Assembly (NCBI GenBank): GCA_016931515.1
Contig: JAFGEQ010000006.1
Coordinates: 24,649-88,648, forward strand
Origin: a candidate division CSSED10-310 bacterium
GTDB taxonomy: Bacteria; CSSED10-310
Direction of reading: 5' to 3'
DNA: 64,000 nucleotides
Part shown: positions 3,041 through 61,187 of the stretch, piece after piece
Numbering within the stretch: the first letter of the stretch is position 1
How the letters are laid out: each line of letters opens with the position of its first letter
Program-made: the position numbers and the translations under genes
Notes under the pieces: model-generated
The model's input: only the letters and a program-made list of their open reading frames with translations
Database searches by the model: none
What the model was told of the DNA's origin: nothing

Positions 3041-3064
3041 ATCTATCCGCGATCAGGGGAATTG

Positions 3065-5344: not shown

Positions 5345-5346
5345 TT

Positions 5347-6768: not shown

Positions 6769-7297
6769 AATCATCATGACAGCCAGGGATATTGACCGGA
6801 TACTATCCCGCTTCGCTTACGAGATTCTTGAGCGTTTTCCGGATCGGGATAACCTGGCAGTCGTAGGTATTCAGACAGGAGGAGCGCATCTTGGTCGTCG
6901 TCTGGTTCAGAAACTCGAAAAACTCGAGAAGCGCTCATTTTCATTTGGCATCCTGGACATCACTCTATACCGAGATGATCTGGCTCTAGAGAAAGACCAA
7001 CCGATCGTCAGGAAAACGGATATCTCTTTTGAATTGAATCAACGGGATATCGTTCTCATTGATGATGTTTTATATACCGGCCGAACAGTACGAGCGGCAT
7101 TGGATGCACTTATTGATTTTGGGCGACCCAGACGAATTGCACTTGCTGTGATAGTTGACCGGGGATTGCGGGAATTTCCGATCAGACCGGATTTTATCGG
7201 GAAAGAGATCCAAACAATACCTGAGGAAACCGTTCGTGTCAGGCTGACAGAAGAAGGTGAACCGGTGGACCAGGTTGTACTTTTAAAGGAGGATTAA
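6746..7297 (+). CDS. pyrR: bifunctional pyrimidine operon regulator / uracil phosphoribosyltransferase PyrR
   Basis: PRTase motif VLIDDVLYTGRT and overall PyrR-like sequence; start ATG 6746 lies inside the 3' end of ntrX. Confidence 0.85.
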   Translation: MSNVAANRIIMTARDIDRILSRFAYEILERFPDRDNLAVVGIQTGGAHLGRRLVQKLEKLEKRSFSFGILDITLYRDDLALEKDQPIVRKTDISFELNQRDIVLIDDVLYTGRTVRAALDALIDFGRPRRIALAVIVDRGLREFPIRPDFIGKEIQTIPEETVRVRLTEEGEPVDQVVLLKED

Positions 7298-7300
7298 GCA

Positions 7301-8239
7301 TTGCAGCTTCAAAGTAAGGATCTATTGGGTCTTGAAGGAGTAACGAAGAAGGAGATATCTCTTATTCTGGATACGGCTGAATCGTTCCGCGAAGTATCGG
7401 AAAGATCCATCAAAAAAGTACCCACTCTGCGCGGCCGTACGATTATCAATTTTTTTCACGAACCCAGTACGCGAACACGCATATCTTTCGAAATTGCGGC
7501 CAAGCGCCTGTCAGCGGATGGAATAAATTTTTCGACATCCGGCTCAAGTTTTTCAAAAGGTGAAACCCTGGTGGACACAGTAAAAAATCTCGAAGCGATG
7601 CAAGCGGATGTGATCGTTATGCGACATGGTATTCCGGGAGCACCGCATCTGATTGCCCGAAATCTTGATGCCGCTGTTATCAATGCGGGGGATGGCGCTC
7701 ATGAGCACCCGACCCAGGCATTATTGGACATGTTCACTATCCGACGACATTTGGGCAAATTGGATGGTCTGACGGTCGTTATAGTTGGTGATATAGCCTT
7801 CAGTCGTGTGGTCCGATCAAACATCTATGGTCTGACAACGATGGGAGCACGGGTTATCGTTGTTGGACCCCCAACGTTGATTCCCGTCGAGATCAGCCGA
7901 ATGGGGATTGAAGTATTGTATAATATCGATGAAGCAATCCCTCAAGCCGACATCATAATGATTCTCCGGATTCAGCTTGAACGCCAGGGAAAAGTGTTTT
8001 TACCATCACTCAGGGAGTATGCGAGATTGTATTCGCTGACGCCGGAACGAATGAAGATAGCCAAAAAAGATGTGCTGGTCATGCATCCCGGTCCGATAAA
8101 TAGAGGTGTTGAGATTGACCCGAGAATTGCCGATGGGGATCACTCCGTGATTTTGGAACAGGTATCCAACGGAGTAGCCGTACGGATGGCGTTGCTGTTT
8201 CTGCTTGCAGGACGAAAAGAATTCAATAAAAGTGAATAA
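7301..8239 (+). CDS. pyrB: aspartate carbamoyltransferase catalytic subunit
   Basis: STRTR carbamoyl-phosphate binding motif ([14 protein letters not shown]), HPxQ; TTG start 7301 with AAAGGAGG RBS 7 nt upstream. Confidence 0.9.
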
Positions 8240-8258
8240 TGTGTGAAAGGTGGTGGTC

Positions 8259-9545
8259 ATGCAGGATATTATTTTAAAGAATGGCAGAATTATCGATCCG
8301 ACACAGGATCTGGATGATCAAACCGATCTTCTGATTCGAGATGGGCGGATTGAGCATATCGGAATATTGAATGATGGGATTCCTGAGGGTGCGACTGTTA
8401 TTGATATTGATGGAAAGTGGTGCGTACCCGGATTGGTGGACATGCATGTCCACCTAAGGGAGCCCGGCAGGGAAGATAAGGAAACTATCCAGACAGGCAC
8501 GATGGCGGCTGTTGCCGGAGGATTTACTGCGGTTGCCTGCATGCCCAATACAAACCCTGTTAACGATTCCGCGGCTGTAACACGTTTTATCATGGAGAAA
8601 GCCCGGAGTGCACCGGCTGTGGTTTATCCGATTGCAGCAGTAACACGGGGGCTTGAAGGAATTCAATTGACAGAGATGGTTGAACTGCACGAAGCCGGGG
8701 CAGTAGCTTTTTCCGATGACGGTCATTGTATCATGAATGCCGACAATCTCAGGCGTGCCCTGGACTACGTTAAAATTTTCGGCGGTCTGATCATCGATCA
8801 CTGTGAAGACCCGGTGATATCAAAAGGAGGCGTCATGAGGGAAGGATTCATCTGTACGACCCTCGGATTCCCGCCGATTCCATCGCTTGCGGAAGAACTG
8901 ATGGTAGCCAGAGATATCCGGATTGCAGAATACACTGGCAGTGCGATTCACATCGCCCACGTTTCAAGCCGCGAGAGTGTACGACTGATCCGTGACGCAA
9001 AAAACCGGGGAATAAGAGTATCGGCCGAAGTGACTCCTCATCATTTATTTCTGACTGATGAAGCGGTCAAGACGTTTGATACGAACACCAAGATGAATCC
9101 ACCGCTTGGAACTGAAGAGGATCGAGAAATTCTAGAGGAGGCAGTAATTTCTGGCGTTATCGACTGTATCGCGACCGATCATGCACCACATACAGACACA
9201 GAAAAACAAGTAGAATACAGCTTGGCTCCAAACGGCATTATCGGATTGGAAACAGCCTTGCCGCTGGTTATGACGCGTCTAGTTCACACTCGAAAAATGA
9301 ACCCGTCGCAGATGATTCGTTCGATGAGCACCAACCCGTCGAGATTACTGGGAATCGAAGGTGGGAGTTTACTGAAGGGTGCGCCCGCCCACATCACGGT
9401 AATTGATCCGGATCGATTGTGGATGGTCGATCCGATGCGGTTCTATTCAAAATCCCAGAATACACCATTCGGCGGACTGAGTCTCAGGGGTTCATGTAAT
9501 CTGACGCTGGTTCACGGAAAAATCGCATTTCAATCCTCGAATTAG
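8259..9545 (+). CDS. pyrC: dihydroorotase
   Basis: Amidohydrolase metal-binding DMHVHLREPG and downstream HxH/D motifs; ATG 8259 chosen (track ORF begins at GTG 8250). Confidence 0.85.
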   Translation: MQDIILKNGRIIDPTQDLDDQTDLLIRDGRIEHIGILNDGIPEGATVIDIDGKWCVPGLVDMHVHLREPGREDKETIQTGTMAAVAGGFTAVACMPNTNPVNDSAAVTRFIMEKARSAPAVVYPIAAVTRGLEGIQLTEMVELHEAGAVAFSDDGHCIMNADNLRRALDYVKIFGGLIIDHCEDPVISKGGVMREGFICTTLGFPPIPSLAEELMVARDIRIAEYTGSAIHIAHVSSRESVRLIRDAKNRGIRVSAEVTPHHLFLTDEAVKTFDTNTKMNPPLGTEEDREILEEAVISGVIDCIATDHAPHTDTEKQVEYSLAPNGIIGLETALPLVMTRLVHTRKMNPSQMIRSMSTNPSRLLGIEGGSLLKGAPAHITVIDPDRLWMVDPMRFYSKSQNTPFGGLSLRGSCNLTLVHGKIAFQSSN

Positions 9546-9706
9546 ACGAGAGGTTGGATATTGGTGGAGAAGGATCTCGGTAAGTAATCGAACCCTCAAA
9601 CTGTTACCAAATACCTCATATTGGCGCATCCCAGGATAATGATGCCACGCCGGATGGAGCTTTGCATCTGGTATATTTTTTGCTTTAAGATTGGAAGACA
9701 GTTTGA

Positions 9707-10495
9707 ATGTGGACACAAGGCACGATCAGACGAGATCAAGGATTGGAGGGCGCCTTGAATTTAAAATACTCCCATGGTTTTTCTCTGGTTGAGTTACTGG
9801 CTGTCATCGGAATTTTTCTGGTCTTATCCACAATTTCGATTATTGCGTGGGACTCGTTTGGACCCCTGATGATACTGCAAGGTGCGGCTGAAGGACTCGG
9901 GGATACTCTTGAACTGTGTATGCACAAAGCTCTGGCTCAAAAAAATGAGTTTTTTGTAATGATCAACTATAGAGAGCGCTTGTATCGAACAAATGACAAT
10001 ATCACTCTCCAGTTCCCCGCCAATTCATATGTGGCAGTCAATGATGATGGCTGGTTGCCGACCAACACGAATAAGACGCGCAGATACAATCATCACTCAC
10101 GGTTTGATGGCGATAAACCGGAGTATCGGGAGGAGTATGTTCCTGATGCTGGTGATTACGCTAACAAATGGCGAGATAATAACATGATTGAGTCTCGAGA
10201 AATCTTTAAGGGACCGTTACGGATAGGACGTGGAATATTTTTTCAGCCGCCGACGGATGTCCGTGATGCCCCTGTTAGAATCGTTTTAAGCTATCGAAAA
10301 CCATTTATGTACTGGCATGGTCAGAATGTTCCCGTCAACCGTCCTGTTTACGAAGCGGAACGCCGCGAGGATGCCGCCTATTTATATTTATCGGACCATC
10401 GGTACCGACCTGGAGATGACACTAAAGATAATAAAGCACATCTTCGGGTCATTCGCATCATAGAACAAAAGGTCGATGTATATCGACCTATCTAA
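9707..10495 (+). CDS. type IV prepilin-like protein (N-terminal cleavage/methylation motif)
   Basis: Leader then G|FSLVELLAVIGIFLVL with Glu at +5 and hydrophobic helix = class III (prepilin peptidase) signal. Confidence 0.7.
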   Translation: MWTQGTIRRDQGLEGALNLKYSHGFSLVELLAVIGIFLVLSTISIIAWDSFGPLMILQGAAEGLGDTLELCMHKALAQKNEFFVMINYRERLYRTNDNITLQFPANSYVAVNDDGWLPTNTNKTRRYNHHSRFDGDKPEYREEYVPDAGDYANKWRDNNMIESREIFKGPLRIGRGIFFQPPTDVRDAPVRIVLSYRKPFMYWHGQNVPVNRPVYEAERREDAAYLYLSDHRYRPGDDTKDNKAHLRVIRIIEQKVDVYRPI

Positions 10496-10523
10496 AAATC
10501 AGAGTGCTGAAAGGGGATCGGTC

Positions 10524-13328
10524 ATGAGTCTTTGTATAAACAAAGGAAATCGTCACGCCGGCTTTTCGCTTGTCGAAATGCTGATATCTATGGTGGTTTT
10601 CAGTGTTGTCATGGGAATTATCTATTCCTTCCTCCTCCAGACAAAAAAGGACCTTTCCGAAGCGGAAGTCGAACTCGATTTAACGGATAATGCGCAATCC
10701 GCTATCAATGCGTTGCGCAAAGATCTATACCAGATAGGGATTGGCCGCGATACTGAGAAAACACAACCCCAGATATTACGCGCAGGTATGTTCGATCTGA
10801 TTTTCGTCGCTGATCTGGATCGTGAAGTCCGCTCCACCGATAAACGATACGGGAGTCCGGATCCCAATCTTCCGATGTCCTTCTCGCCTGGATCTCCGTT
10901 CTTACCAATCTATTTTTTATTCGATCCCGGTATACCAGAACTTTTTCGCTTTACAGGATGGGATCCGAGTTTGAGTTACGGTTATAACAACCTGGGTGCA
11001 GAAGTCGTCCGTTACTCGTTAGATTGCAACGGTGATAATGTAATCAGCAGTTTGGATCTGGAAGATAATATCGAGATGGACGGAGCCAGGGAACAGACGA
11101 TCAACCCGAATGATTTCTGGCTTTTCAAGGAATGGTGGGGATGCTATAACTCCTCCGGAGTCTATATCAACCAGCACTCCGGACGACATCCGGTCGCCTT
11201 CAATATAAAAGGTATGTTTTATAAACCCACTGGAGGAACACCATCGGGGACAAACAGTCGTTTCATTTACCCCGACGGGAGTTATCCGAAAATACTGTTT
11301 ACTTATTGGGGCCATTTTTGGAATTCCATTACTGATCATGATGATCCGGGAGATCCTGATTGGCCTGGTGAACCACTGGATTTATGGGGTGATTTCGGGT
11401 TGCAAAATCCGATCCAGATCAATCAACCGATAACCCCCGGCGTTGACGGCTCCAGAGACGGCGTTTTAGATATGAACGAAATCAACGAGATGATGAGCAA
11501 TCCCAATAAATCGGAAATCAATCTCCTATACCTTGCCGGTATAACTGGCCGATGTGCTGAAAGTCTTACGGGGGATGAGAATGGGAACGGTATCCCGGGT
11601 GAGTATAGGATTGACCAGTTTATTCGGCGTATCGGTGTCACTCTGGTTGTTGAGGCAGATTCTCCAAACCCCAAATCACCTAATCTTGAGCGGTCCAATA
11701 TGACTAATCCCAGTGCTCCTGGATATTACTATTACAAAGACTACGAGGTATCGATACAGATTAACCCGAGAAATCTGATCTATTCCGGATCTCCACTTGT
11801 TGATATGGGTCAGATGACACCTACGCCGATTCCGCCGACATCAACACCGCTACCCCCTACCAACACTCCTGATCCTTCAATCCCAACCAACACACCAACC
11901 AACACACACACACCGGACCCGATGGCAACACCAACAGCGACTCCTGATCAACTTGGTTTCGATAAGGATGATGGTGAAGTTGTGATCGGCGGTCTTAATT
12001 ATATTTATGGTTTATCCATCGATCGGATGGCTCCATCTGTTTCTGAAATTTGCGCATTGACCAATAGTTCGACCTATCTTGCCTTGTTCGGATATCCAGT
12101 GACCCAGGTTGAACCTGCTAATTTCTGTGATTTGCCGGGATCTTTTGATCCTTGGAATGACGTTGTCATGTCGAATAATGCGAACGGAGGTCTGTCGAAT
12201 CTGTTTTATTACAAGCATAATACTGAATCCAGCGTCAACGGATTCTCAACCCTTCATTCTACATCAGTCGGCTACGATCCATCTGACCGGATCACCTGTT
12301 TCGCAACCGGCAATATTGGACCATTTGGTTATGTTCCGGATGAATATGACGAAGTTGTCGTGGCCTATCATCGATACAATGGAGCTCCTACCGAAAAAAC
12401 CCTGATCGAAGTCATGGCACTAAACTATAACTGTGGTGATTTGATTTCAGTCAGCAATCCACCTCCCCTGTCACTCGACACCAATCGAATCATTAAAGAT
12501 ATGCTGATTGCGGATTTTGACGGTGATGGTATCGGGGAGCTTGTCACAATGACCAGTCATTTCGGCACTGAGGGTGTCTCCCAAATTCGCTATTATCCGG
12601 ATATCTTTAACCAGGGTTGGTCAACATACCATGAGTTCCCGATTTTGAATTTTGGCACGAATGTCCAATGCGCCAAGCTTGTTGCAGATACTGTCTACAC
12701 CGGAAATGCTAAACCTATAGAACCTGACCTTATCATCGTAGGAGAAAATGGACGATTTGCAGTGATTACGAATCGCCGTAGCGGTACCGTATCACCCAAT
12801 CCATTTAACACGACCATCCGATACAGTACATCAGATGCATTTGATCGTTTCTCAACAGTAACCGGTGCAGTCGTATATGACTCAAATAATTTAAGCAGTG
12901 TATATGAGCCGGTCATGGCCATCAGTGGAAATAGTGATGTATCCGATAACGTACAACTTGTACATTACCAGATGACTGATATCGCAACATCTACGATCCC
13001 GTTGGCGAATTGTTCCGGATCAATCTGGCCGACACCCGGTGAGATAATCTCAACCAAAGGAATGAGCTATGTTCCGGTATTCGGGACGGTCAATTCTGAC
13101 ACTTATCTGGTCATCCCGGTCAATGTGGGTGGTATTGATTATGCAACCTTTATAAAGAACCCTGTATTAAGCAGCGGTCCTGTATTCGATCCATCTGTCT
13201 CCTGTCAGTTGGAGCTCTACTCTGTCATTGGAGGAATCAACTGCATTACATCAACGCGGAATGAGTTATCTGGAGATCTTGGAACGATGCCGACACCCAC
13301 AGTTTTACCAGCGACACCAACGCCTTAA
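10524..13328 (+). CDS. giant type IV pilin-like protein (~935 aa) with FG-GAP-like and Ca-binding-like motifs and Pro/Thr linkers
   Basis: ATG 10524 preceded by AAAGGGGA RBS; N-terminus NKGNRHAG|FSLVEMLISMVVFSVVMGIIYSF prepilin motif; DFDGDGIGE FG-GAP-like loop; PT-rich linker near 11818-11948; C-terminal PTPTVLPATPTP. Confidence 0.65.
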   Translation: MSLCINKGNRHAGFSLVEMLISMVVFSVVMGIIYSFLLQTKKDLSEAEVELDLTDNAQSAINALRKDLYQIGIGRDTEKTQPQILRAGMFDLIFVADLDREVRSTDKRYGSPDPNLPMSFSPGSPFLPIYFLFDPGIPELFRFTGWDPSLSYGYNNLGAEVVRYSLDCNGDNVISSLDLEDNIEMDGAREQTINPNDFWLFKEWWGCYNSSGVYINQHSGRHPVAFNIKGMFYKPTGGTPSGTNSRFIYPDGSYPKILFTYWGHFWNSITDHDDPGDPDWPGEPLDLWGDFGLQNPIQINQPITPGVDGSRDGVLDMNEINEMMSNPNKSEINLLYLAGITGRCAESLTGDENGNGIPGEYRIDQFIRRIGVTLVVEADSPNPKSPNLERSNMTNPSAPGYYYYKDYEVSIQINPRNLIYSGSPLVDMGQMTPTPIPPTSTPLPPTNTPDPSIPTNTPTNTHTPDPMATPTATPDQLGFDKDDGEVVIGGLNYIYGLSIDRMAPSVSEICALTNSSTYLALFGYPVTQVEPANFCDLPGSFDPWNDVVMSNNANGGLSNLFYYKHNTESSVNGFSTLHSTSVGYDPSDRITCFATGNIGPFGYVPDEYDEVVVAYHRYNGAPTEKTLIEVMALNYNCGDLISVSNPPPLSLDTNRIIKDMLIADFDGDGIGELVTMTSHFGTEGVSQIRYYPDIFNQGWSTYHEFPILNFGTNVQCAKLVADTVYTGNAKPIEPDLIIVGENGRFAVITNRRSGTVSPNPFNTTIRYSTSDAFDRFSTVTGAVVYDSNNLSSVYEPVMAISGNSDVSDNVQLVHYQMTDIATSTIPLANCSGSIWPTPGEIISTKGMSYVPVFGTVNSDTYLVIPVNVGGIDYATFIKNPVLSSGPVFDPSVSCQLELYSVIGGINCITSTRNELSGDLGTMPTPTVLPATPTP

Positions 13329-13354
13329 ACAGCCACGCGGCAGATAAAAACAAT

Positions 13355-13384
13355 AAAGCCACATTCTTTAAAGAACGTGGCTTT
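13355..13384. terminator. bidirectional intrinsic terminator (near-perfect 15+15 palindrome)
   Basis: aaagccacattcttt|aaagaacgtggcttt flanked by A-run upstream and T-run downstream, between convergent ends of the pilin gene (+) and the minus-strand operon. Confidence 0.5.
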
Positions 13385-13397
13385 ATTGTTGAATCGC

Positions 13398-13898
13398 TTA
13401 CCCGAGTTTGTAACCGATCTTTCTCAAAAAGAGCATTCTCTCTTGAGCATCTGTTTCGGTTTCAATCCCGAGCGGTTGAAACCCATCCAAAACACCCAGA
13501 ATACCCCTCTGCTCATGATCGTTCGATGCAACCACAACCGTAGTCGGATTAGCTGTGGCACAGAAGATCCGGCACACTTCAGGTATCATTTTTATCGTAT
13601 TTAGTATGTTCACCGGGAAACCCGAATCGATAAAAATCAGGAAAGAATGCCCGGCTCCGATTATTGCAGAATTGGAAACGGCGATGTCCTTTAAAGTTTC
13701 ATCATTCCCAGATACTCTAATCAATCTGGGTCCGCTGGCTTCACAGAATGCAGCTCCAAACTTCATCCCCGGATTTGTCTGAATAATCGCTTCATGAAGG
13801 TCTTCTATCGTTTTTATGAAATGGGCCATACCCAGGATGAAGTTCAGTCCTTTCGGATTGTTTATTTCTATGTATTCCAACTTCATATTAGCCTCCAT
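13398..13898 (-). CDS. small conserved protein, adenosine-specific-kinase-like family (tentative)
   Basis: 166 aa; motifs GMAHFIKTIEDLHEAI, FCEASGPRLIR, CATANP resemble the PF04008-type family as I remember it; not verified. Confidence 0.35.
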   Translation of the reverse strand: MEANMKLEYIEINNPKGLNFILGMAHFIKTIEDLHEAIIQTNPGMKFGAAFCEASGPRLIRVSGNDETLKDIAVSNSAIIGAGHSFLIFIDSGFPVNILNTIKMIPEVCRIFCATANPTTVVVASNDHEQRGILGVLDGFQPLGIETETDAQERMLFLRKIGYKLG

Positions 13899-13916
13899 CG
13901 ATTATTCTTCCTGATA

Positions 13917-16900
13917 CTATGGATGTGGATCAAAATATAGCACCGCACCTTTATTTCCGTCGCCAGTATCAACGCGTTCACCACCGGTGTGGCTCAAGAA
14001 AACGACTTCTTCATCCCCCATTTCGCCTATATCGATCCCACCCAGTGCATCGACGCCCAAGCCCGTATCATATGTGTTCTTTAATTCTCCATCTCTCGTA
14101 ATTTCCAATACAAAACCATTACCGCGACAGGCGACATACAAATGGTCATACTTCACCGAGTAAGCAATACCGATGGGGTTGTTCAAATACGCATAAGTAA
14201 AACAAACCACCGATTGAAGGCCACTGCCGTCGACAACCGACAACGTTTCAGATGTGCCGACCGGTCCAGATGGTTTCATCCTGACACGGGTTATATTTCC
14301 AGCTTCCGGATCGGTAATGAACAGGTAACCTGAGCCAGGATCAGCGTCTTCAGATAGTGGAACAAACTCGATTCCCATTGGCGTATCAACACCAGTGAAT
14401 GCCACATAGGGACCATCGTCGAGATCGATTCCATAAACCAATCCTCGATCAGAATGCGATGCGAAAATCAAGCGACTCATATAGGAGGGATCATCGGGCG
14501 CCAGACCCGCATCAACAATGCCGCTGATTCCAACCAGCCCGACCCCTGCTCCCCAGTACCCCGCATAGGTTCCGAATCCACGGGCTCCTCCGTTATCGGC
14601 ACCCAGCGTGCTGCTCTGCTGAGCAAAATCTTCCGCATGATTGTCCGTGTCGATACCATTCGGTACCCGTGCGACAGATTCGTTCGCGATGCTGTCTGCA
14701 TCACCGTTCTCCCCCGGCTCCGGCGCTCCGTTTCCATCACCGTCTCCTGCAGGATCGTCCCCGATTTCAACATCGTCAATGATAGAACTTGCTGTGTCGC
14801 GCAGAATGAAATAGCAGTCGTTATTATTAGAGCCAACTGGATTCCCAACCACCAGATAGGAACCGGGAAGGAAGTTCGTCACGCTGGCAGAGGTTGGATA
14901 AACGATTTCCGTACCACTGCCGCTGCCTATCACGTGCGTTTCAGGTGTTGTGTCGATCATTTCCAATGTCCATCCAGTCAGATCCAGCGTTTGACCCGAT
15001 GTGTTGTACAGCTCAATCCACTCATCAGATGTCGTGATAGCTCCCGAACCCGGTGTATCACTGAATGGTATTCCATCGCCACCCTCAGAATCATTCCAAT
15101 CCTGCTGGGGATCGACAACCACTTCATTGATTACTATCTTCCCGAGTCCTGTAGTGAAATTTATCTCAAAATCAGGACCGGTACTGCCGTCACAGTCTCC
15201 ATCAAGCCCATGGCCACTGGTGTCCGTGATAGCGGACGTTAATGTGACCGTATAGGTTTCCTCAGAAGCTAGCCGATCTCCGGGTTGAAATAGCACAACC
15301 GTGTTTCCGGAAGTAAACATGAAGTTACCGGTAACAGCGCCATCGGGGCCCACCATCAAAAACGACGTTGTGTTAACGGTACTGGGGAGAATCGCCTCTG
15401 TAAAATGGATCGTTACTCCCGTATTGACCGATACGTTCTGATCACCATCGGTTGGATCGCTTTCAAAAACGCATGGAGGAGTTCTATCGTCACCTCCAGT
15501 TCGGAATTCGGCAATAAATGGATCCAGCGGAAGCCCCTGTGTCTGATCCAGCGAATTGCCCGCAAGGTCCGTTACATCTGTCGTTACAGTCAATCGGTAA
15601 TCGGTATCTTCATCCAAATCAGTCTCAGGACTTAAAGAAATACTTGTATTCCCGGGATTCAGAGTAATTACTGAAAGAACATGGTCATCGGGGAATGCGA
15701 CCGGAACCAGATAGACTGAAGCGCTTGTTACTGTAGATGAATTAACCTGTTTAGAAAAATTCATGTAAATCTGAGTGTTAATACTAATTCCCGTGTCCCC
15801 CGATTCCGGATAGGATGATGTCACGTAGAGCCGGTCTCCTCCAGCAGCAACTTGTGTGCAATAACGCCCTCCCGGAAGGCCATCCCCGTCTCCGTCCAAA
15901 GTAACGCCTTGCAAATCCGTCAGTGTATCTTCAACACACACAGTATAATAACCTTCCGAAAACCCGGTTGACGCACTGAAGTTCATCTGAACACCGGAGG
16001 GCCAGGTAATGGTTCCGGATACTTGCCGATTCTGGCTGTCGACGACACTGAGGTATACGCCTGTCAGACTGGAAGGATCGATCTCCTTCGTGAAGATGAT
16101 CGTAAGCAGATCACCGGAAATACTTGCTGACGCTACTTGTGGAGGCTGCGTACTTGAGGCTCCGGTACTGAAATGACTCACGAAAGCATCCGGTAAACCA
16201 CCGGGAATCTGATCCAAAGGATTTCCCGTCAGATCCTGAACTCTGTAATTGACTTCAACCGTATAGGTAATATCAGCCTGCAGTTGTTCCCTCGGAACAA
16301 ACGTTGCCATCATCAAACCCGTATCCACATGGATGTCACCACTGATTTTATTCCCATCCGGTTCCATCACCAGGAAAGCGGTCGTGGATACAGTGGATGC
16401 TTTTACGGGCTCGGAAAAGCCGATCTCTATCAGAGTGTCTACCGATACGAAGGTTGATCCATCGGCCGGGCGCACCCAGACGACACGGGGACTGCCATAT
16501 CCAACAGTAAAAATGCTATTGAAATCATCCGGTCCCGGACTGCGCAGATCGCCATCGAGTGAAACGCCATCCTGATCCGTTATATCTTTATCCAATACTA
16601 TTTCGTAACGGGTCTTCTCAGTCAAATCACTCGAATAAACAAATTCAACTCTTTTATAATCGTTCGAAAATGAAAATGAGCCAGTAGGTGCTTTGGGATA
16701 GGGTGATTGGGGGCTATAGTCAACCTGCACTTCGAACGTTGAGGATGTGACCGTCGATGGATCGACCGGTGACGAAAATTCGACAGCAATCACCGGATGG
16801 TGCGACACACCTTCCGCACCGTCTTCCGGGGTCACGGATGTAACAATAAACCCGTAGTCAGTCATTCCAAAGATACCGGATCCAGCCGGCCCGGGAACGG

Positions 16901-17399
16901 GTTCACCCGCCTTGCCGGAGTGGCCGTTGGGTTCTTTCGTCGGATTCGGATCCGTCACTGCAATGCTTCCAAGACCCTGGTCGTCATTGGCAATCCAGAC
17001 AAACGGTCCGAGAAATGCAACATCATAAGGATTTGAAACAGCCGGTAATCCAAATTGATCCGTTAATCCGCCATGACTATAAATATCTATGTTTCCCGAA
17101 TGAGGATTTACCTGAGTAATTGTGTTCGCAAATTCACCGATTGTTCCTCGATTGGCAACCAGGAGATTGCCGACGCTGAGAACGCTGCCCTGACCGCTCC
17201 CATCGGAATCTTTCCCTGCTATAAATTCGATCCCCCATGGGAAATTCAAATTGGACGCGACAATCTCAGGTGCGACAAGAATAGTGTTTTTATCCTGATC
17301 AAAGGAATTCTCAATTTTATCTTCGCAACCAACCAAGATCATTCCCAGAGCGAGAACAAGGCATACATTTACGGTCATCCATTTCATAATCAACCTCAT
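13917..17399 (-). CDS. giant surface lipoprotein with repeated Ig-like (SbsA/Big_5-type) domains, a lamin-tail domain and beta-propeller-like termini
   Basis: Lipobox LVGC after signal peptide; repeated P..G...V.....I...FS..V....V....F.L units; LTD-like block GKIVINEVVVD...DEWIELYN...GWTLEM (approx 14700-15150); NHL/propeller-like C-terminus. Confidence 0.65.
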   Translation of the reverse strand: MRLIMKWMTVNVCLVLALGMILVGCEDKIENSFDQDKNTILVAPEIVASNLNFPWGIEFIAGKDSDGSGQGSVLSVGNLLVANRGTIGEFANTITQVNPHSGNIDIYSHGGLTDQFGLPAVSNPYDVAFLGPFVWIANDDQGLGSIAVTDPNPTKEPNGHSGKAGEPVPGPAGSGIFGMTDYGFIVTSVTPEDGAEGVSHHPVIAVEFSSPVDPSTVTSSTFEVQVDYSPQSPYPKAPTGSFSFSNDYKRVEFVYSSDLTEKTRYEIVLDKDITDQDGVSLDGDLRSPGPDDFNSIFTVGYGSPRVVWVRPADGSTFVSVDTLIEIGFSEPVKASTVSTTAFLVMEPDGNKISGDIHVDTGLMMATFVPREQLQADITYTVEVNYRVQDLTGNPLDQIPGGLPDAFVSHFSTGASSTQPPQVASASISGDLLTIIFTKEIDPSSLTGVYLSVVDSQNRQVSGTITWPSGVQMNFSASTGFSEGYYTVCVEDTLTDLQGVTLDGDGDGLPGGRYCTQVAAGGDRLYVTSSYPESGDTGISINTQIYMNFSKQVNSSTVTSASVYLVPVAFPDDHVLSVITLNPGNTSISLSPETDLDEDTDYRLTVTTDVTDLAGNSLDQTQGLPLDPFIAEFRTGGDDRTPPCVFESDPTDGDQNVSVNTGVTIHFTEAILPSTVNTTSFLMVGPDGAVTGNFMFTSGNTVVLFQPGDRLASEETYTVTLTSAITDTSGHGLDGDCDGSTGPDFEINFTTGLGKIVINEVVVDPQQDWNDSEGGDGIPFSDTPGSGAITTSDEWIELYNTSGQTLDLTGWTLEMIDTTPETHVIGSGSGTEIVYPTSASVTNFLPGSYLVVGNPVGSNNNDCYFILRDTASSIIDDVEIGDDPAGDGDGNGAPEPGENGDADSIANESVARVPNGIDTDNHAEDFAQQSSTLGADNGGARGFGTYAGYWGAGVGLVGISGIVDAGLAPDDPSYMSRLIFASHSDRGLVYGIDLDDGPYVAFTGVDTPMGIEFVPLSEDADPGSGYLFITDPEAGNITRVRMKPSGPVGTSETLSVVDGSGLQSVVCFTYAYLNNPIGIAYSVKYDHLYVACRGNGFVLEITRDGELKNTYDTGLGVDALGGIDIGEMGDEEVVFLSHTGGERVDTGDGNKGAVLYFDPHP

Positions 17400-18331
17400 T
17401 CCACAGCGGCCATTGCTGCTGTTTCCCTGGAGCGGGCAAGGGCTTCAGAAAAAAAGCCTCCTGTCAGACCATCTATTGCGGCTGTCAATTCCTGAATCTG
17501 TAATTCTCTTTTTACCTTGACAGTAATTGATACTTCCGGTTGGAGGATCATCTCTACCTGCAGTGCGCGACGGTCATAATACAATTCTGTCACATCCTCG
17601 ATCACACTCTGCCTAAATTTCACTTGTTTCTCGGTTTCCGAGCTCACTCTCAAAATATCATTGCTGAAGCAGTAATCCTGGAGTTTCCATCTGAACCTCA
17701 ACTGATAATCGAAATCATCATCGGTGCCCCGCTTCCAGGTTTCCTTGTCCGGACCGACCGTCGTGGTTCCTCCTGATATGCTGATCGTATTCGTACGCGT
17801 ATAATCTCTGTCATCGTCCGTATCGTGTCCGAGAGTGAATTGAACGGAATCGGGCCAAAGTCCTTTCTCCTTCGCCTTCTGCCGCCACTGGGCAAACCGT
17901 TCGCCATCAATTTCAGCAAAGCGGATTGCAGCTATCTGTACATCGCGGATGGATGGTTCCAGATCGAAAGAAGCGAGAATTTCATCAACCGATGGCAGGG
18001 GTGTAGCAGTTGGTTGGGATTCTTCCGGCACATCTTGCTTTGATATAACATCCACAACAGGATCGGGATCGGATAGGGAGATAAGATCCTTCAATCTTTC
18101 CAGTGTCTTATCGCCTATTTTAGGTACATTACCGAGTTCATCCAAGGACTGAAATGGTCCATTGGTGTTGCGATAATCGATGATCAATTGCGCCAGTCCC
18201 GGACCTATGCCCGGTAATGTCTGCAATTCCATGTTCGTTGCGGTGTTGATATTCACCGGTGTGCTATCCAGTGCCTGACAAGCCGCTGCAACAACCAATA
18301 AATATGCAATCGAACTCAGTAGCTTTTTCAT
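17396..18331 (-). CDS. ComEA-like helix-hairpin-helix protein fused to a C-terminal domain of unknown function
   Basis: Signal peptide, then VNINTATNMELQTLPGIGPGLAQLIIDYRNTNGPFQSLDELGNVPKIGDKTLERL (ComEA HhH signature), then ~200 aa unknown; 4-bp overlap with downstream gene. Confidence 0.6.
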   Translation of the reverse strand: MKKLLSSIAYLLVVAAACQALDSTPVNINTATNMELQTLPGIGPGLAQLIIDYRNTNGPFQSLDELGNVPKIGDKTLERLKDLISLSDPDPVVDVISKQDVPEESQPTATPLPSVDEILASFDLEPSIRDVQIAAIRFAEIDGERFAQWRQKAKEKGLWPDSVQFTLGHDTDDDRDYTRTNTISISGGTTTVGPDKETWKRGTDDDFDYQLRFRWKLQDYCFSNDILRVSSETEKQVKFRQSVIEDVTELYYDRRALQVEMILQPEVSITVKVKRELQIQELTAAIDGLTGGFFSEALARSRETAAMAAVE

Positions 18332-18354
18332 TTTTCTTCTCTCCTTAACACGCT

Positions 18355-20175
18355 TCAGTATCGCAGTCCCTTCTGGAACAGAGTGTCAAATTGAAAACCG
18401 GTTAACGCATTGATCTGCGCCTCTATCTCTTGTATATTCAGAACCATATCAATCGTACGACCCGGATTGCCGGACGTGCTTAACTCCATGTACAACCGCC
18501 CCAGTTTGTTATACTTATCTCGAATATCCACCAACATTTTGTTCCGACGTCGAACCTCGCTTCTCAATCGTTTCGACATCGATACATCACTCCGGTCAAA
18601 ACAATAAAAGCGAGGACTCCACGAGAGACTCAATCTCACATCAAAGGGATCATTCTGCCAAAGATCATATCTTTCGTTCACCGGTCCAGTGTAGGCTTTT
18701 CCACCGGATATCCAGACTTCGGGATTGCGGGTGTAATTTGTTCTCCGAATTGCCATTGAGGTGAGACAAAACTCGACTTTGGGAAACCAAATCCTGTTGA
18801 GTGACCCGTTATACCAGTTCCGATCCCGAGCAATATCTATTTGTGCATGACGCATCGAAGCCCTGATTACGTCATTCAGGGTCGGATATTCATCAGGCAG
18901 AAAAGTCGCGATCATCGGGTCGAAAGACATGCCCGTTTGATCAGAGAGCATAAAAATGCCGGTCGCTGTTGCAATCCATATCTCTTCCGGACGCGTTGGA
19001 TTCAGCGCCAGTTCACGCACGTTATACTCAGATAAACCCGGATTATGGAATTGACCTTCTCCCGTTAGTGAGTTCCAAAAATACAATCCCCTGTTCGTTG
19101 CAAGAATTGTCGTGTTCAATGAAACGAGAAGATCCTGGATTCTTACTCCACTGATCTCTTCCTCCGATACCTCTGAGAATTCATGATCCTTTGTGATCCG
19201 ATACAAACCGGTTGGACCCCCAAGATATATCTCATTCTGTGACGAGAGATTGATCATCTGTGCCTGAATGGGTGGCTGCAGTACTCTTATATTCTCCAAA
19301 ACGGCGTGGTTTAAACTGGCAATAATGACACTGCTTTCCGTAATGGCGACAATGACACGTCCGTTTATTCGATCCGTCTCCAGATCGAGCATCCGTCCCT
19401 GATCCAAAACACCCTCAACAACATCGAATGTTAATCCATGATCGTTCGATATAAGCAATTTTCCATTCTGAAGGATCAGAACATCTCCTTCAGGTGCAAT
19501 CACACAGACCCGAGTGATCCCTGTGTTCGCAGGTCCTGCGTTAGCCGGCAACTCCTCCCAACGATGCCCCGAATCCATCGATCGATATAATCCTCGATCC
19601 GTCACCAGATACGCATACCTCGGATCCGTGGAGTCCCAGCGGACCTGGCGGATCACAACCTGTATTTCTTCAATAAAATCCGGATCCTCATCACCAATAT
19701 CCACTTCCTCATCAGTGTCGGTGTCAGGTTCCTCTAAAAGACCCAGATCAATCAGTCTTTCCCTGAGTTCCTCATCCGACAGATCATCAATCTCCTCCTC
19801 CTCGTCGAGTACTCCCCTGTAATACAAATCGTCGACATCATAATCGTCCCGATCGAAATTCGTGGAGATATCTGATTCCTGGTCATCCTGATCAGGTTCT
19901 TCAATGTAATCTTCCTCATCATCAACAAAAGAGCCGGTACGAAACACTGCCCGCCAGGATCGTCCATTGTTTTCAGACAAGTAAACAGTTCTTTCTGTTG
20001 CACATAATATATGCCGACCCGAGTCATCCAGATCAATAGAAATCAAATTCAAATCAAGCATTCCGCCCGATTGATCGATCCATTTTCTCTGGAGAAACTC
20101 CGGTTCAAGTCCAGAAAAAGCAGATGCTTTCAGGAATAAAACAAACAAACCGATGAGGAATTGAGTCCGGATCAC
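18355..20175 (-). CDS. secreted BNR/Asp-box repeat protein with a long acidic insertion
   Basis: Signal peptide MIRTQFLIGLFVLFLKASA (GTG start); Asp-box-like SENNGRSW, SMDSGHRW, SNDHGLTF; ~90-aa D/E-rich segment. Confidence 0.5.
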   Translation of the reverse strand: MIRTQFLIGLFVLFLKASAFSGLEPEFLQRKWIDQSGGMLDLNLISIDLDDSGRHILCATERTVYLSENNGRSWRAVFRTGSFVDDEEDYIEEPDQDDQESDISTNFDRDDYDVDDLYYRGVLDEEEEIDDLSDEELRERLIDLGLLEEPDTDTDEEVDIGDEDPDFIEEIQVVIRQVRWDSTDPRYAYLVTDRGLYRSMDSGHRWEELPANAGPANTGITRVCVIAPEGDVLILQNGKLLISNDHGLTFDVVEGVLDQGRMLDLETDRINGRVIVAITESSVIIASLNHAVLENIRVLQPPIQAQMINLSSQNEIYLGGPTGLYRITKDHEFSEVSEEEISGVRIQDLLVSLNTTILATNRGLYFWNSLTGEGQFHNPGLSEYNVRELALNPTRPEEIWIATATGIFMLSDQTGMSFDPMIATFLPDEYPTLNDVIRASMRHAQIDIARDRNWYNGSLNRIWFPKVEFCLTSMAIRRTNYTRNPEVWISGGKAYTGPVNERYDLWQNDPFDVRLSLSWSPRFYCFDRSDVSMSKRLRSEVRRRNKMLVDIRDKYNKLGRLYMELSTSGNPGRTIDMVLNIQEIEAQINALTGFQFDTLFQKGLRY

Positions 20176-20224
20176 TTTACTGTCATCCTAAAAATATCTT
20201 ATTTCAGCCGAAAGAGCCTTCTGC

Positions 20225-20253
20225 AAAGTATCAGACTCTGAAATGAGGGTCAA
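20225..20253 (-). promoter_or_regulatory. candidate sigma70-type promoter for the secreted-protein operon (TTGACC-17-TACTTT on minus strand)
   Basis: Minus-strand TTGACC (20248-20253) and TACTTT (20225-20230) with 17-nt spacer, ~50 nt upstream of GTG 20175. Confidence 0.3.
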
Positions 20254-20265
20254 TAATCGAGCCGT

Positions 20266-20577
20266 TTAACAAATGCGTTTCACTTTGAAACAGTTCTCCA
20301 AAACCCATTCGATAATCATTTTGAGTTCCTCATGGGAGGAGATTCCGAAATGAGTATTAAAAATGACTTCTTCGAGTTCTTGGACAATTATTTCGTACAG
20401 TTTTAACACAGGTTCATCTATCAGAGAATATTCGCTGAAGGAGATATATGTCATCTGCTGGTCACTGATTCGTTTCAGAGCAAGCAAGGCATAAGCACCA
20501 AGATTCTCCCGCCTGTAATCGGCAATAAGACAAACAATCCGGGTTTTCAGCTCACCCAAATCCTCAGTCATAGACAA
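20266..20577 (-). CDS. hypothetical protein (103 aa)
   Basis: ORF whose start overlaps the 3' end of the upstream nucleotidyltransferase gene by 10 nt; no motif recognised. Confidence 0.35.
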   Translation of the reverse strand: MSMTEDLGELKTRIVCLIADYRRENLGAYALLALKRISDQQMTYISFSEYSLIDEPVLKLYEIIVQELEEVIFNTHFGISSHEELKMIIEWVLENCFKVKRIC

Positions 20578-23500
20578 CCACGCGACTGTTCCAGAAGATA
20601 TCGACCTATTGTATCGATAGCTTGTCGAGCTCGATATCGATGTCCCCGATAGCTGTTGATCAGACGCGGTGCGGACCCTCCGCTTCCATCGCCTTCCATA
20701 GAATCAATCCCCATCTGTTCTGACACGCGAATCAATTGATCGCGTAACATATCATCCTCCGTTGAAAAACTTAAATAGTACAAATCTTTAAATGTTCGAA
20801 GAAATTTATACACCCGTTCGAGAGTTTTAAATTCCGAAGCCAATTCCGGCAAAGCGTTGATCAGTGTCTGAAATGTTCTCCAGATATCTGATTCGCGATT
20901 GCCAATAAATGCCTGGCCGGCCTGCAGAATCATCTGGATATCCCTTAATCCACCCGGATTCTCTTTCACATTGACTGTATGACTTTTTATCTTTGAGGAG
21001 GTAATACGGCGATCCTCTATTTCGTTGAGTAGCGAAGCGATAAATCGATGCGGGTTCGCGAATAGCTTTTTTTCAAGCAGCCTTGTCAGTACTCTGTCGA
21101 AAGACTGGCTTCCAACTAAAAGCCGGGCGCCTAGCAACTGAGTCCAATCAATAAAATCGGACTCCTCAGGTATCTCAAATTTCGCTTCAAGTTGATCCAT
21201 CGGAATGATAAATGAGTTAAAAATCTCGGCAAAACGATGGTGTGTCAGCACGCCCTGCTTGTTTAACTCCCTGTTGATGTCATTAATCAACGAGGATGCG
21301 TATCGAATGAACTCTCGTTCTGAAATTCCGCAGATAACGAACAGATCGATGTCATTTTCAAACGCTTCTTCCCTTGCATACCCCCCTGTACAGAAAATTG
21401 CGATCGGCTGGTCGTCTTCATCCTGCGCCCTGAATTCGAATTGGTATTCTCCACGCGTATCGATTTGCCATTGTGCTGCGCGATAGAGCCAACGGAAATA
21501 GCGTCTGAAAAATGAATGGTACATCCGGTAGAATGATTCGAGATCATCCGGACGATTCAACACTTCCAGACCACAGCGGCAAAACCCGAACTGGTAAAAA
21601 ACGGCAAGTCGTTCCTTCAACTCTTGAGGATTCGATGCATCCGACAGTTCCGCCCACTGTAATTGTCTGACCCTGTCAAGATAGGCCATGTCATCGATAT
21701 GAGATACAATTTCCGGCCGGATCTCCACGACCTTCGAAAAAAAACGCCGGTAATTATTCGAGGACAATTCCAGAACCCGGCAGAGAATTTTGAATTGTCC
21801 CTGCAGTTTTTGAAAATCCTTGCTTGTATCATCGATTTTTTCAACTTCCCGGCTCACGTCGGATAACTGCTGTTGATCGAGATTGATCAGGAAGTGAGTA
21901 ACAATTGACGGATTGGACGGCAACATCTCAACAAGTTCCCGAACCCGATGGAGATCGGTTTTAAAAAGCTCCAGAAGCCATATATTGAGTGCGCGTGAAT
22001 AGTCTACTTCCGTGAATCCGTGAACATGACGGTTAAACAATACCGCCATGCTGATCATCGAATCCATATCGAATGCAATCATCCTGATCAATCTGCGGAA
22101 CGTATAAAGCCTGTGATGAATAGATAACTTCTCAATTGATTCTACTAATTGTGCCAGCCGACGCCCCTTGTCGCCCTCCATGGACTGCAGAATATCATCC
22201 CAGTACCGCGTACCCTTGAATTGCTTGATAGCAAAAAATAAGTTCCGAACCAGGCTGTCAGTCCATTTTATAGCCAATTCCGGCGGCTTTTTATTATTCA
22301 TCAGATCATTGAAAACCGTTATTTTTTTCAGATGGCTGTCCACCTTACTCATCACCTGGCCGCTCAATTCACACAAGAGGTTCAGATTTTCGTAGTAGTG
22401 AACCAACAGACGAGGACCCGGGCGGATAGGTCCCAGGGATTCGAATCCCATAACTTCAGCAACTGCATCCAGATTTTCCATGATGACGGGATCGGTTGTA
22501 TCAAATCGATCATCAATAGAAATCAAGAGTTGATAAAGGTAAAAAAACATCTCGCAGAAATTGAATGAGCTCTGTAATGCCTCGTAGAGTTTTCGAGATC
22601 CCGGATCCCGGTTGACCAGGATATCCAGCGTATCACGGGATCCGTGTTCATGAATTCCGTAGATTGTTTTTAGAAGACTCATGGAATTATGTATCAAGCG
22701 GAGAGCATCATTTTTCGGGCTTGCCCACTGAGGATCGATTTTCCGCTGCATTTGCCTCTGGACTTCTCCCATCAATCCACGGAGATATGCTTCATGGAGA
22801 TAGCGCGCATCCGGGTTGTAATAAAACTTGTTTATGACAACTTCTTCCAGACGCCTGACAGGTTGCTTGTCACCCAGCAGGTATTCATTCGCAAGTAATT
22901 CCGAAATTAGGATGTAATTACTGATATCTCGTTTCAGATAACGTTGAAAATCAACAGTTGAAGTCAGGTATGAGTTCGTTGTGACAAGTTCCGCTAGATA
23001 GAAATGCATTTTTGTTGAGTATTTAAGAAATTCGGCTGCTACCTGGCTGATAATCGTATTCCATTGGTTTTTATCGATGCCCGGCGAGATAAAAACACCA
23101 ACATCAAGGTCCTCTTGATCCATGATCATACCGACATTACAGATTGCTATCCCGTTCATCGGCAAATCCTCTGCGAATACATGGATAAGTACACTGATGT
23201 AATTGGAGATCAAACTGCGGCGCTGGATGCGAAGACGTGAAAGAATCTGTCGGTAAACATGAGTCCTGTCCTTTTCCGATCTCGATTCCCGTCGAAGAGA
23301 TTCTATACTTATAAAATGAAGATGAAGCATCTGGAGACCGAAGTAGGTTCCAATGAACTGACGCATTTCCTTCGGCGTATCTGCTACCCGAGCGACAGCA
23401 GTCATCTGGCTTTTGTAATTATAAGATTTACGCCACAGATGAACCTTTCCGGCCATTCCCCGCTCTTCCAATCTTTGCCGCAATGCCGGGGCATTCTGTT

Positions 23501-23603
23501 CAACCAATTGCTTGTATTTTTGAAAATGATTTGAGAGACGCTCCAGACCACTGGAAAGCTCGTCAAACGATTCGATCAAGCTCTCGCCTTCGGATTTCAG
23601 CAT
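20568..23603 (-). CDS. GlnE-like bifunctional nucleotidyltransferase (two NT domains; glutamine synthetase adenylyltransferase family, tentative)
   Basis: Canonical NT motif CTGGYAREEAFENDIDLFVI plus degenerate N-terminal copy NVGMIMDQEDLDVGVF, each followed by helical region; GGLRDIQM motif; 1011 aa matches GlnE size. Confidence 0.45.
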   Translation of the reverse strand: MLKSEGESLIESFDELSSGLERLSNHFQKYKQLVEQNAPALRQRLEERGMAGKVHLWRKSYNYKSQMTAVARVADTPKEMRQFIGTYFGLQMLHLHFISIESLRRESRSEKDRTHVYRQILSRLRIQRRSLISNYISVLIHVFAEDLPMNGIAICNVGMIMDQEDLDVGVFISPGIDKNQWNTIISQVAAEFLKYSTKMHFYLAELVTTNSYLTSTVDFQRYLKRDISNYILISELLANEYLLGDKQPVRRLEEVVINKFYYNPDARYLHEAYLRGLMGEVQRQMQRKIDPQWASPKNDALRLIHNSMSLLKTIYGIHEHGSRDTLDILVNRDPGSRKLYEALQSSFNFCEMFFYLYQLLISIDDRFDTTDPVIMENLDAVAEVMGFESLGPIRPGPRLLVHYYENLNLLCELSGQVMSKVDSHLKKITVFNDLMNNKKPPELAIKWTDSLVRNLFFAIKQFKGTRYWDDILQSMEGDKGRRLAQLVESIEKLSIHHRLYTFRRLIRMIAFDMDSMISMAVLFNRHVHGFTEVDYSRALNIWLLELFKTDLHRVRELVEMLPSNPSIVTHFLINLDQQQLSDVSREVEKIDDTSKDFQKLQGQFKILCRVLELSSNNYRRFFSKVVEIRPEIVSHIDDMAYLDRVRQLQWAELSDASNPQELKERLAVFYQFGFCRCGLEVLNRPDDLESFYRMYHSFFRRYFRWLYRAAQWQIDTRGEYQFEFRAQDEDDQPIAIFCTGGYAREEAFENDIDLFVICGISEREFIRYASSLINDINRELNKQGVLTHHRFAEIFNSFIIPMDQLEAKFEIPEESDFIDWTQLLGARLLVGSQSFDRVLTRLLEKKLFANPHRFIASLLNEIEDRRITSSKIKSHTVNVKENPGGLRDIQMILQAGQAFIGNRESDIWRTFQTLINALPELASEFKTLERVYKFLRTFKDLYYLSFSTEDDMLRDQLIRVSEQMGIDSMEGDGSGGSAPRLINSYRGHRYRARQAIDTIGRYLLEQSRGCL

Positions 23604-61167: not shown

Positions 61168-61187
61168 CACACTGATGGATCGGGAAG

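Follow-up and report, generated by a model that had tools for sequence, protein, structure and literature searches.

A widespread undescribed domain shared by two paralogous genes of a conserved CSSED10-310 cluster with ComEA-type and lamin-tail modules

What kind of system is encoded by a compact gene cluster that combines a ComEA-type helix-hairpin-helix (HhH) protein with a large lamin-tail lipoprotein in a bacterium of candidate division CSSED10-310, a phylum of anoxic sediments that is predicted to be Gram-negative (PMC8248873)? The cluster is located in a 64,000-nucleotide stretch of a metagenome-assembled genome (hereafter, the window; positions 24,649 to 88,648 of contig JAFGEQ010000006.1, assembly GCA_016931515.1), and an earlier interpretation of the letters alone (hereafter, the sequence-only reading) had described it as three consecutive minus-strand genes for secreted proteins. 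Analysis of the open reading frames (ORFs) of the window revealed four tightly packed ones at 13398-20175 on the minus strand, to which all coordinates of the cluster refer. The three reported genes are all present, namely gene 1 (18355-20175, 606 aa, with a GTG start), gene 2 (17396-18331, 311 aa) and gene 3 (13917-17399, 1160 aa), while a fourth within the same coordinates had been overlooked (gene 4, 13398-13898, 166 aa). As had been claimed, the N-termini of the first three proteins look like signal peptides (MIRTQFLIGLFVLFLKASA/FS, MKKLLSSIAYLLVVAAACQA/LD and a lipobox in the third protein); gene 4 has none. No description of this combination of genes and domains was met in Pfam, NCBIfam or the literature searched, in agreement with the sequence-only reading. 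The region consists of known parts in a new variant, centred on a widespread undescribed domain.

This domain is the C-terminal domain of both gene 1 and gene 2 (hereafter, C-dom; 18376-18927, aa 417-600 in gene 1, and 17444-17992, aa 114-296 in gene 2). The C-terminal part of the gene 2 protein had been taken as unrelated, and it is in fact a homologue of the C-terminal end of the gene 1 protein (gene 1 aa 417-596 vs gene 2 aa 114-294; BLASTP E 3e-18, 30% identity over 183 aa), so that the two genes are paralogous through C-dom. A C-dom hidden Markov model (HMM) matched gene 1 at 2e-74, though gene 1 is one of the 10 rows from which the HMM was built. Because they share C-dom, the two gene products probably belong to a single assembly as its subunits, instead of being two of three independent secreted proteins.

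C-dom had no covering match in Pfam, NCBIfam or the PDB sequences. A profile search of 1.84 billion representative proteins recovered 2446 clusters (50% identity) at E<=1e-3 and 1655 at E<=1e-10, indicating a large family. The domain ended at most 30 aa from the C-terminus in 151/151 members checked, and at most 20 aa from it in 149 of them. The N-terminal parts of the family members vary, from a signal peptide only (in proteins of ~200 aa) to a propeller, an HhH module and occasionally a lamin-tail domain (LTD).

To profile how C-dom genes are arranged, GTDB species genomes were scanned with a 10-sequence C-dom alignment, which returned 206 relatives; the best 80 were classified, and all 80 loci are from diderm lineages. 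The trio of propeller protein, HhH protein and lipoprotein occupied 10/80 loci (9 CSSED10-310-type loci and the locus designated L027). Pairs were found in Myxococcota and 'proteobacterial' metagenome-assembled genomes, 11/80 loci having a second gene with HhH and 12/80 a second gene without it, and a solo propeller gene with C-dom was found in 40/80, mostly in Omnitrophota and Planctomycetia; seven loci were left without an assigned arrangement. Tandem genes for propeller and C-dom, then C-dom with or without HhH, were thus detected in 33/80 loci across phyla. In a neighbour-joining tree the C-doms of first and second genes formed separate clades within each lineage, with the first-gene branch evolving faster, and the fusion of HhH to C-dom is present in two separate major lineages.

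The three-gene arrangement of the window recurs elsewhere. The order of propeller protein, HhH protein and Big_5/LTD lipoprotein was kept in all CSSED10-310 loci examined, and besides the 10 trio loci it was found in L003 and L012. In L003, whose gene 2 is 36-39% identical and whose upstream context is different, a propeller protein with C-dom is followed by an HhH protein with C-dom and a lipoprotein that carries Big_5 units; in L012 the series runs from a C-dom fragment through an HhH protein with C-dom to a lipoprotein that has a VAGC lipobox, Big_5 and LTD; and L027 has the complete trio. The flanks of these distant relatives differ or are cut. The entire neighbourhood is collinear among the CSSED10-310 loci (fabG, a GlnD-like gene, a 103-aa ORF, genes 1-4 and pseudopilin genes), so conservation inside the phylum proves little. 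We rejected gene 4, the GlnD-like gene, the 103-aa ORF and the pseudopilins as core members of the module, as they are found only in these collinear loci. Since the arrangements vary across loci, the stable core is the C-dom protein or pair, and the HhH module and the LTD lipoprotein are lineage-specific additions.

What fold could C-dom have? An AlphaFold model based on a 44-sequence alignment (predicted local distance difference test 89.5, predicted template modelling score 0.69) showed two short helices, a hairpin of two 19-residue strands (E55-73 and E89-107), a 40-residue helix (117-156) and two return helices (162-183 and 186-203). In gene 2 these correspond to helices, then a beta-hairpin that is long and amphipathic, then a helical hairpin that closes with LTGGxFS. 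The predicted order of helix, beta-hairpin and long helical hairpin is that of a repeat of OEP (PF02321), the family of TolC and other outer-membrane factors (OMFs). The hairpin tip forms a small sub-hairpin that is acidic and insertion-prone, with an insert of variable length between the strands. Strand 2 (F-G-W-D-V-S-L-S-W-D-L) has one hydrophobic/aromatic face and one small/acidic face among the 151 members, and its six alternating hydrophobic/aromatic positions, including two Trp, are membrane-belt-like. One of these Trp is present in 150/151 members, and Pro53 before strand 1 in 151/151. This amphipathic pattern is compatible with insertion into the outer membrane.

Comparisons with OMFs were made in several ways. 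Foldseek against the PDB returned nothing significant (OMFs E>=0.07, template modelling (TM) score <=0.32), and its top list was mostly OprM, OprN, VceC, TolC, CmeC, SilC and ST50 over ~200-240 columns; beta-pore-forming toxin stems matched the hairpin alone. Besides propeller and HhH families, OEP was the sole Pfam family that recurred among C-dom proteins, in 4/44 (best E 0.0042) and in 10/114 members (best E 0.014), always sub-threshold (e.g., 11.6 bits vs a cut-off of 22), and the C-dom of the window itself had no PF02321 match in Pfam. When C-dom was aligned by hhalign to 18 OEP repeats from nine OMFs, including six plasmid-borne ones, the alignment was colinear end to end (P 0.005, score 24.9; reversed control 15.6, best of 60 shuffles 18.9), and it paired the two strands (the first led by Pro), the long helix and the Gly motif at the end. 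This colinear alignment emerged only once the six plasmid-borne OMFs had been added. These independent tests are each weak and all concordant, pointing to one TolC-family repeat, and C-dom is probably a diverged single OEP-like repeat. The C-dom proteins are not canonical OMFs.

The gene 2 protein (identical to MBN1878905.1) starts, as the sequence-only reading had recognised, with a ComEA-type HhH module (18080-18262, aa 24-84). It matched HHH_3 (PF12836) in Pfam at 75.9 bits vs a cut-off of 27 (E 2.7e-21) and TIGR00426 in NCBIfam at 62.2 bits vs 53.1, while the full-length comEA model TIGR01259 gave 75.8 bits and did not reach its cut-off of 152. With the solved DNA-binding domains of ComEA the module shares 40-44% identity, and it has kept both G-I-G hairpins, so a link to DNA is plausible. 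[quoted passage not shown] A linker of ~25 residues, rich in Pro and Thr and disordered in the model, connects HhH and C-dom in gene 2. There are only 17 full-length homologues of gene 2, and among its orthologues C-dom is better conserved than the HhH module.

The gene 1 protein (P0121), labelled hypothetical protein by NCBI, has a putative Sortilin/BNR-type beta-propeller region at about aa 30-410. The BNR call made from its sequence falls below threshold in gene 1 itself (in Pfam, BNR E 0.037; Sortilin-Vps10 27.3 bits vs a gathering score of 33) and stands only through its relatives. Sortilin-Vps10 matches were found in 57/114 members of the C-dom family (best E 7e-24), and homologous N-terminal regions of relatives passed the Sortilin/BNR cut-offs, for example in P0170 (84.8 bits) and P0251 (87.1 bits); an HMM of the gene 1 N-terminal region connected it to relatives with significant Sortilin-Vps10 matches. 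The gene 1 orthologues were taken from the homologous loci, as an acidic low-complexity insert swamped a direct homologue search. This extremely acidic insert of ~90 residues lies in the propeller (aa 84-176; 19648-19926, minus strand), was present in all five orthologues aligned, and includes a conserved 'DDLSDEELxERLxDxGL' stretch with a weak LEM/HeH-like match (E 0.023).

Gene 3 encodes a lipoprotein, and both the LVGC lipobox and the combination of Ig-like units with a lamin tail that had been read from its sequence were recovered. The lipobox (aa 22-25) fits the pattern [LVI][ASTVI][GAS]C, as does VAGC in L012, and Gly24-Cys25 is invariant in 8 orthologues. Five tandem Big_5 (PF13205) Ig-like units occupy 15156-16844 (aa 186-748; Pfam E 1.1e-73 over 5 stretches, 245 bits, above the gathering score), with boundaries by iterated HMM at aa 186-297, 306-410, 415-517, 526-632 and 644-748. 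The LTD follows at 14763-15143 (aa 753-879; PF00932, E 1.6e-11, 45 bits vs 34.3) and is kept in the gene 3 orthologues and in L012. The terminal regions of the protein are conserved and beta-rich. The C-terminal ~235 aa had sub-threshold NHL matches in 5/6 orthologues, the N-terminal ~170 aa had no NHL match, and motifs of the type P-x-G-I-E/A-F/Y are repeated at both ends; we suspect from these motifs an NHL-like propeller that is split by the Ig/LTD array. The only relative of the gene 3 profile among PDB sequences was the Ig-like S-layer protein 2ra1_A, no nuclease or phosphatase domain was found in gene 3 by the Pfam, NCBIfam and PDB searches, and its architecture had no match among curated models.

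Bacterial LTDs are found with nucleic-acid-binding and nuclease modules (PMC8289736), and HhH is fused with LTD elsewhere, for example in P0064. In another lineage, P0157 (L013, 3361-5583; GCA_947085655.1) has an LTD, a PEP-CTERM sorting motif, a propeller and C-dom in one called gene. It could be a true fusion or two merged genes, and either way an LTD protein adjoins a propeller protein with C-dom. The company that LTDs keep elsewhere and P0157 are the sole support that ties gene 3 to the same ligand as gene 2.

Taken together, we tentatively propose, at a little short of an even chance, that genes 1 and 2 co-assemble via C-dom into an outer-membrane-anchored oligomer that presents the propeller and the ComEA-type DNA-binding module, together with the LTD lipoprotein. 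In canonical TolC each chain has two repeats and three chains make up the channel, giving six repeats, so six single-repeat subunits could form a comparable barrel. This beta-barrel would lie in the outer membrane, joined to a shorter stalk of helices in the periplasm. The tandem pair of diverged paralogues suggests that the assembly may consist of three gene 1 and three gene 2 subunits in hosts of the cluster, and of a homo-oligomer in single-gene lineages. If C-dom is TolC-like, both termini would be periplasmic. The gene 1 propeller would then hang below the outer membrane, and gene 2 would add, also below it, a double-HhH module on a flexible linker. The sequence-only reading had placed at the cell surface a module that could bind DNA or another polymer; the module is conserved and its DNA link plausible, but with a TolC-like C-dom the HhH would lie under the outer membrane. 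The assembly might act as an outer-membrane-anchored multivalent DNA receptor that holds or ratchets DNA entering the periplasm, resembling the role of the soluble or inner-membrane-anchored ComEA of competent bacteria. Gene 3, whose LTD is carried by a stalk of five Ig-like units set between putative NHL-like propeller segments, could be a partner specific to the lineage, in contact with either the same polymer or the assembly.

Several observations weigh against this proposal. Regarding the membrane assembly, the AlphaFold model is a monomer, strand 1 has just 3-4 alternating hydrophobic positions, and the hairpin is strongly acidic in its distal half. Only a motif of 14-22 columns was aligned by hhalign when C-dom was compared with TolC alone, with three E. 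coli OMFs or with their six repeats. No adaptor or inner-membrane transporter genes (HlyD, resistance-nodulation-division (RND) or ATP-binding cassette) were found near the cluster of the window or in the orthologous loci, and a search of the homologous loci with an OMF HMM found no OMF. The face of C-dom presumed to line the lumen has conserved Asp residues, which count against DNA threading, so that an anchor or receptor role is favoured over a DNA conduit.

C-dom could instead be a soluble oligomerisation or ring module whose hairpins form a periplasmic beta-collar, as in FliF and injectisome rings, with genes 1-3 providing a periplasmic scaffold, possibly together with the converging pseudopilin-like genes. 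The very acidic hairpin tip, the only partly hydrophobic strand 1 and the low TM-scores of C-dom to OMFs would fit such a ring, though the membrane-belt-like strand 2 with its two Trp would not. Foldseek does list, weakly, FliF rings (8zdt, 8t8p) and phage tail parts, but the FliF matches have a probability of 0.06-0.09 and cover part of the model, whereas the full-length structural and profile matches of C-dom are TolC-family proteins only. Likewise, two N_methyl pseudopilin-like genes (9707-13328) are conserved beside the cluster in CSSED10-310, yet they are absent from L003, L012, L027 and all loci outside CSSED10-310. We consider this ring unlikely. The two pseudopilin-like genes (plus strand; 262 aa and 950 aa) have N-terminal methylation motifs and converge on the cluster, adjoining it in all CSSED10-310 loci and in no other lineage; the 950-aa protein has a long Pro/Thr-rich stretch. 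The plus-strand cluster 2456-13328 was considered as a secretion or pilus operon and rejected, since it consists of pyrB, pyrC and these two genes.

Other points concern the DNA ligand of the proposed outer-membrane receptor. HhH was found in 8/114 C-dom family members, and as it is absent from most of them, DNA binding would be an add-on and not the core function of the family. HhH-like folds also occur in the non-DNA-binding proteins PsbU and GspK, and the genome has a separate canonical small ComEA-like gene (29380-29739, plus strand, 119 aa). This protein has an N-terminal hydrophobic segment before its HhH, and its gene overlaps by 4 bp the start of a 116-aa gene that reads by eye as ssb-like (the two spanning 29380-30086, plus strand).

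The ligand may be a polymer other than DNA, a glycan or exopolysaccharide that the propellers and Ig-like units bind or cut, the HhH being structural or incidental. The propeller occurs without HhH in most C-dom members, HHH_3-like folds serve elsewhere as in PsbU and GspK, and Big_5 and LTD are present in many surface proteins unconnected to DNA. Gene 1 and its relatives also weakly match the 'F510_1955 family glycosylhydrolase' model and BNR/GH74-type propellers, but every F510_1955 match is far under the cut-off of 175 bits, and the Pfam and NCBIfam searches found no catalytic glycoside-hydrolase domain in the proteins of genes 1-3. Against an incidental HhH stand its identity to true ComEA DNA-binding domains, the retention of both G-I-G hairpins and the joining of HhH to C-dom in two separate major lineages, and we hold this reading to be improbable, to about the same degree as the ring.

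The position of gene 3 raises a further alternative, in which the products of genes 1 and 2 serve as an outer-membrane translocon and bring the lipoprotein, in a Slam-like manner, to the surface, where its LTD/Ig array captures extracellular DNA. TolC-type channels do pass unfolded polypeptides in type I secretion, the lipoprotein gene directly follows two putative outer-membrane subunits in four lineages, and the cell-surface location of the sequence-only reading would be accommodated. However, Myxococcota have the pair but no gene 3 beside it, and in Omnitrophota and Planctomycetia the gene is single and has no partner. There is also no similarity to Slam/DUF560 or other known lipoprotein exporters in Pfam, and neither a 1160-aa multi-domain substrate nor a periplasmic HhH would have an obvious role. 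We regard the translocon as very unlikely. In every Myxococcota-type pair checked by Pfam, guaA follows the gene pair and no relative of gene 3 is present, so the lipoprotein is not linked to the pair in every lineage, a point that also counts against the proposed receptor; the ~510-aa gene after these pairs, a candidate analogue of gene 3, was rejected as it is guaA.

That the genes are neighbours merely through an order inherited in one clade, as the collinear CSSED10-310 neighbourhood would allow, is highly improbable and already disfavoured by the persistence of the trio with differing or cut flanks (the upstream context of L003; the distant lineages L012 and L027), by the C-dom shared between genes 1 and 2 and their adjacency across phyla, and by the tight spacing. 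Genes 1 and 2 are separated by 23 bp, genes 2 and 3 overlap by 4 bp or are 8 bp apart, and genes 3 and 4 are separated by 18 bp. The 4-bp overlap that had been reported is there (ATGA, 17396-17399), but it hinges on the start codon of gene 3, for which an alternative ATG at 17387, with a GAGG Shine-Dalgarno motif 6 nt upstream, would give the 8-bp gap instead; the orthologues have small gaps and no overlap at this junction.

The boundaries of the transcript differ from those given by the sequence-only reading. Its palindromic terminator is indeed a strong intrinsic-terminator-like hairpin (13349-13390, minus strand; 19-bp stem, 4-nt loop, T run), the strongest terminator-like site of the region, yet it comes after gene 4, between convergent genes, and not after the 1160-aa gene. 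Gene 4 matches the PF04008 'adenosine specific kinase' family (Pfam, 228 bits); its product is cytoplasmic, and from the layout it is probably co-transcribed with genes 1-3. The candidate promoter upstream did not hold up: the 90-bp gap before gene 1 (20176-20265, minus strand) has no consensus promoter or sigma-70-like site, by eye just TTGACC-17-TACTTT. Farther upstream on the same strand are a 103-aa ORF and then a 1011-aa GlnD-like nucleotidyltransferase, so the transcript could begin further up. The 1011-aa protein has a GlnD_UR_UTase match in its C-terminal part only, and its gene overlaps the 103-aa ORF, which has no family match, by 10 bp (the two spanning 20266-23603, minus strand); both are upstream of gene 1 in most CSSED10-310 loci.

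Several features of other loci and of the wider window were recorded alongside. The guaA gene after the pair is at about 9500-11400 in L036, L042, L051, L055 and L078 and at 4776-6359 in L044, and in L011 the C-dom pair is followed by phosphoribosyltransferase-like and purF-like genes (8660-9220, 11101-12501). The window has the PF04008 gene and pyrB/pyrC nearby, and these nucleotide-metabolism neighbours may be there by chance or may hint at a connection with nucleotide salvage. In Omnitrophota-type loci (L007, 4283-7533; L008, 1-3574) the solo propeller gene with C-dom is downstream of genes for a histidine kinase, a response regulator and an HD-GYP (HD_5) protein, and an HD_5 response regulator is also near the C-dom gene of L013. 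Elsewhere in the window, 48090-50396 (plus strand) encodes a membrane H+-pyrophosphatase (H_PPase, 890 bits) with an N-terminal PKD domain (aa 36-97), a fusion that looks unusual. The region 54650-62822 was considered as an RND efflux operon supplying a native TolC and rejected, as its products are two unknown proteins and one NFACT protein; the former are encoded by consecutive ORFs (54650-61167, plus strand; 1064 and 1108 aa) that overlap by 4 bp and have no Pfam match.

If the proposed outer-membrane receptor exists, a large unnamed family (at least 2446 clusters, including Omnitrophota, Planctomycetia, Myxococcota and CSSED10-310) would join the known outer-membrane architectures, and a TolC repeat could stand alone and be fused to other domains, which bears on the origin of the TolC fold by duplication. 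A ComEA-type receptor would be fixed to the outer membrane, being neither soluble nor anchored in the inner membrane, as a new version of the oligomeric ComEA principle, with relevance to the capture of DNA by uncultured sediment bacteria, be it for transformation or for nutrition. A bolder scenario, which we consider quite unlikely, is that C-dom forms widespread undescribed single-repeat ('half') TolC-like channels of six subunits, in a 3+3 form with a periplasmic ComEA module in CSSED10-310 and some Myxococcota, which would serve as a secretin-independent station for DNA uptake or release and reflect the state of TolC before its duplication. For annotators, there is reason not to label gene 2 simply 'ComEA family DNA-binding protein'.

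How does the cluster compare with known systems? In its predicted fold, C-dom shares with the TolC/OEP proteins (PF02321; TolC, OprM, VceC, CusC) the succession of helix, Pro-led strand, strand, long helix, return helix and Gly-rich end (LTGG in C-dom, ALGGG in the OEP repeat). It differs in having one repeat of ~190 aa per chain vs two tandem repeats in ~450 aa, a helical hairpin that is ~35 residues shorter by the hhalign alignment, longer strands with an acidic and insertion-prone tip, a position always behind a propeller, an HhH or nothing, and a sequence similarity under every curated threshold. The N-terminal part of gene 1, like most family members, matches the Sortilin-Vps10, BNR and PSII_BNR families of Sortilin/BNR (Ycf48-like) propellers, though its own matches are sub-threshold and it carries the ~90-residue acidic insert and a fused C-dom. 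Gene 3 resembles LTD-containing secreted proteins (ExeM/NucH-type nucleases and the Izemoplasmatales LTD/nuclease protein, PMC8289736) in being secreted or lipid-anchored with an LTD beside Ig-like modules, and differs from them in that no nuclease or phosphatase was detected and the LTD is placed after five Big_5 units, between putative NHL-like segments. With ComEA (TIGR00426/TIGR01259; PDB 8dss, 2duy) gene 2 has in common a secreted double helix-hairpin-helix at 40-44% identity and, as in Gram-positive ComEA (PMC9747964), its joining to a probably oligomerising domain. In gene 2, however, the HhH is N-terminal, whereas it is C-terminal in ComEA, the gene is not beside comEC, and in place of the SLBB/oligomerisation domain and the N-terminal membrane anchor its partner is the TolC-like C-dom.

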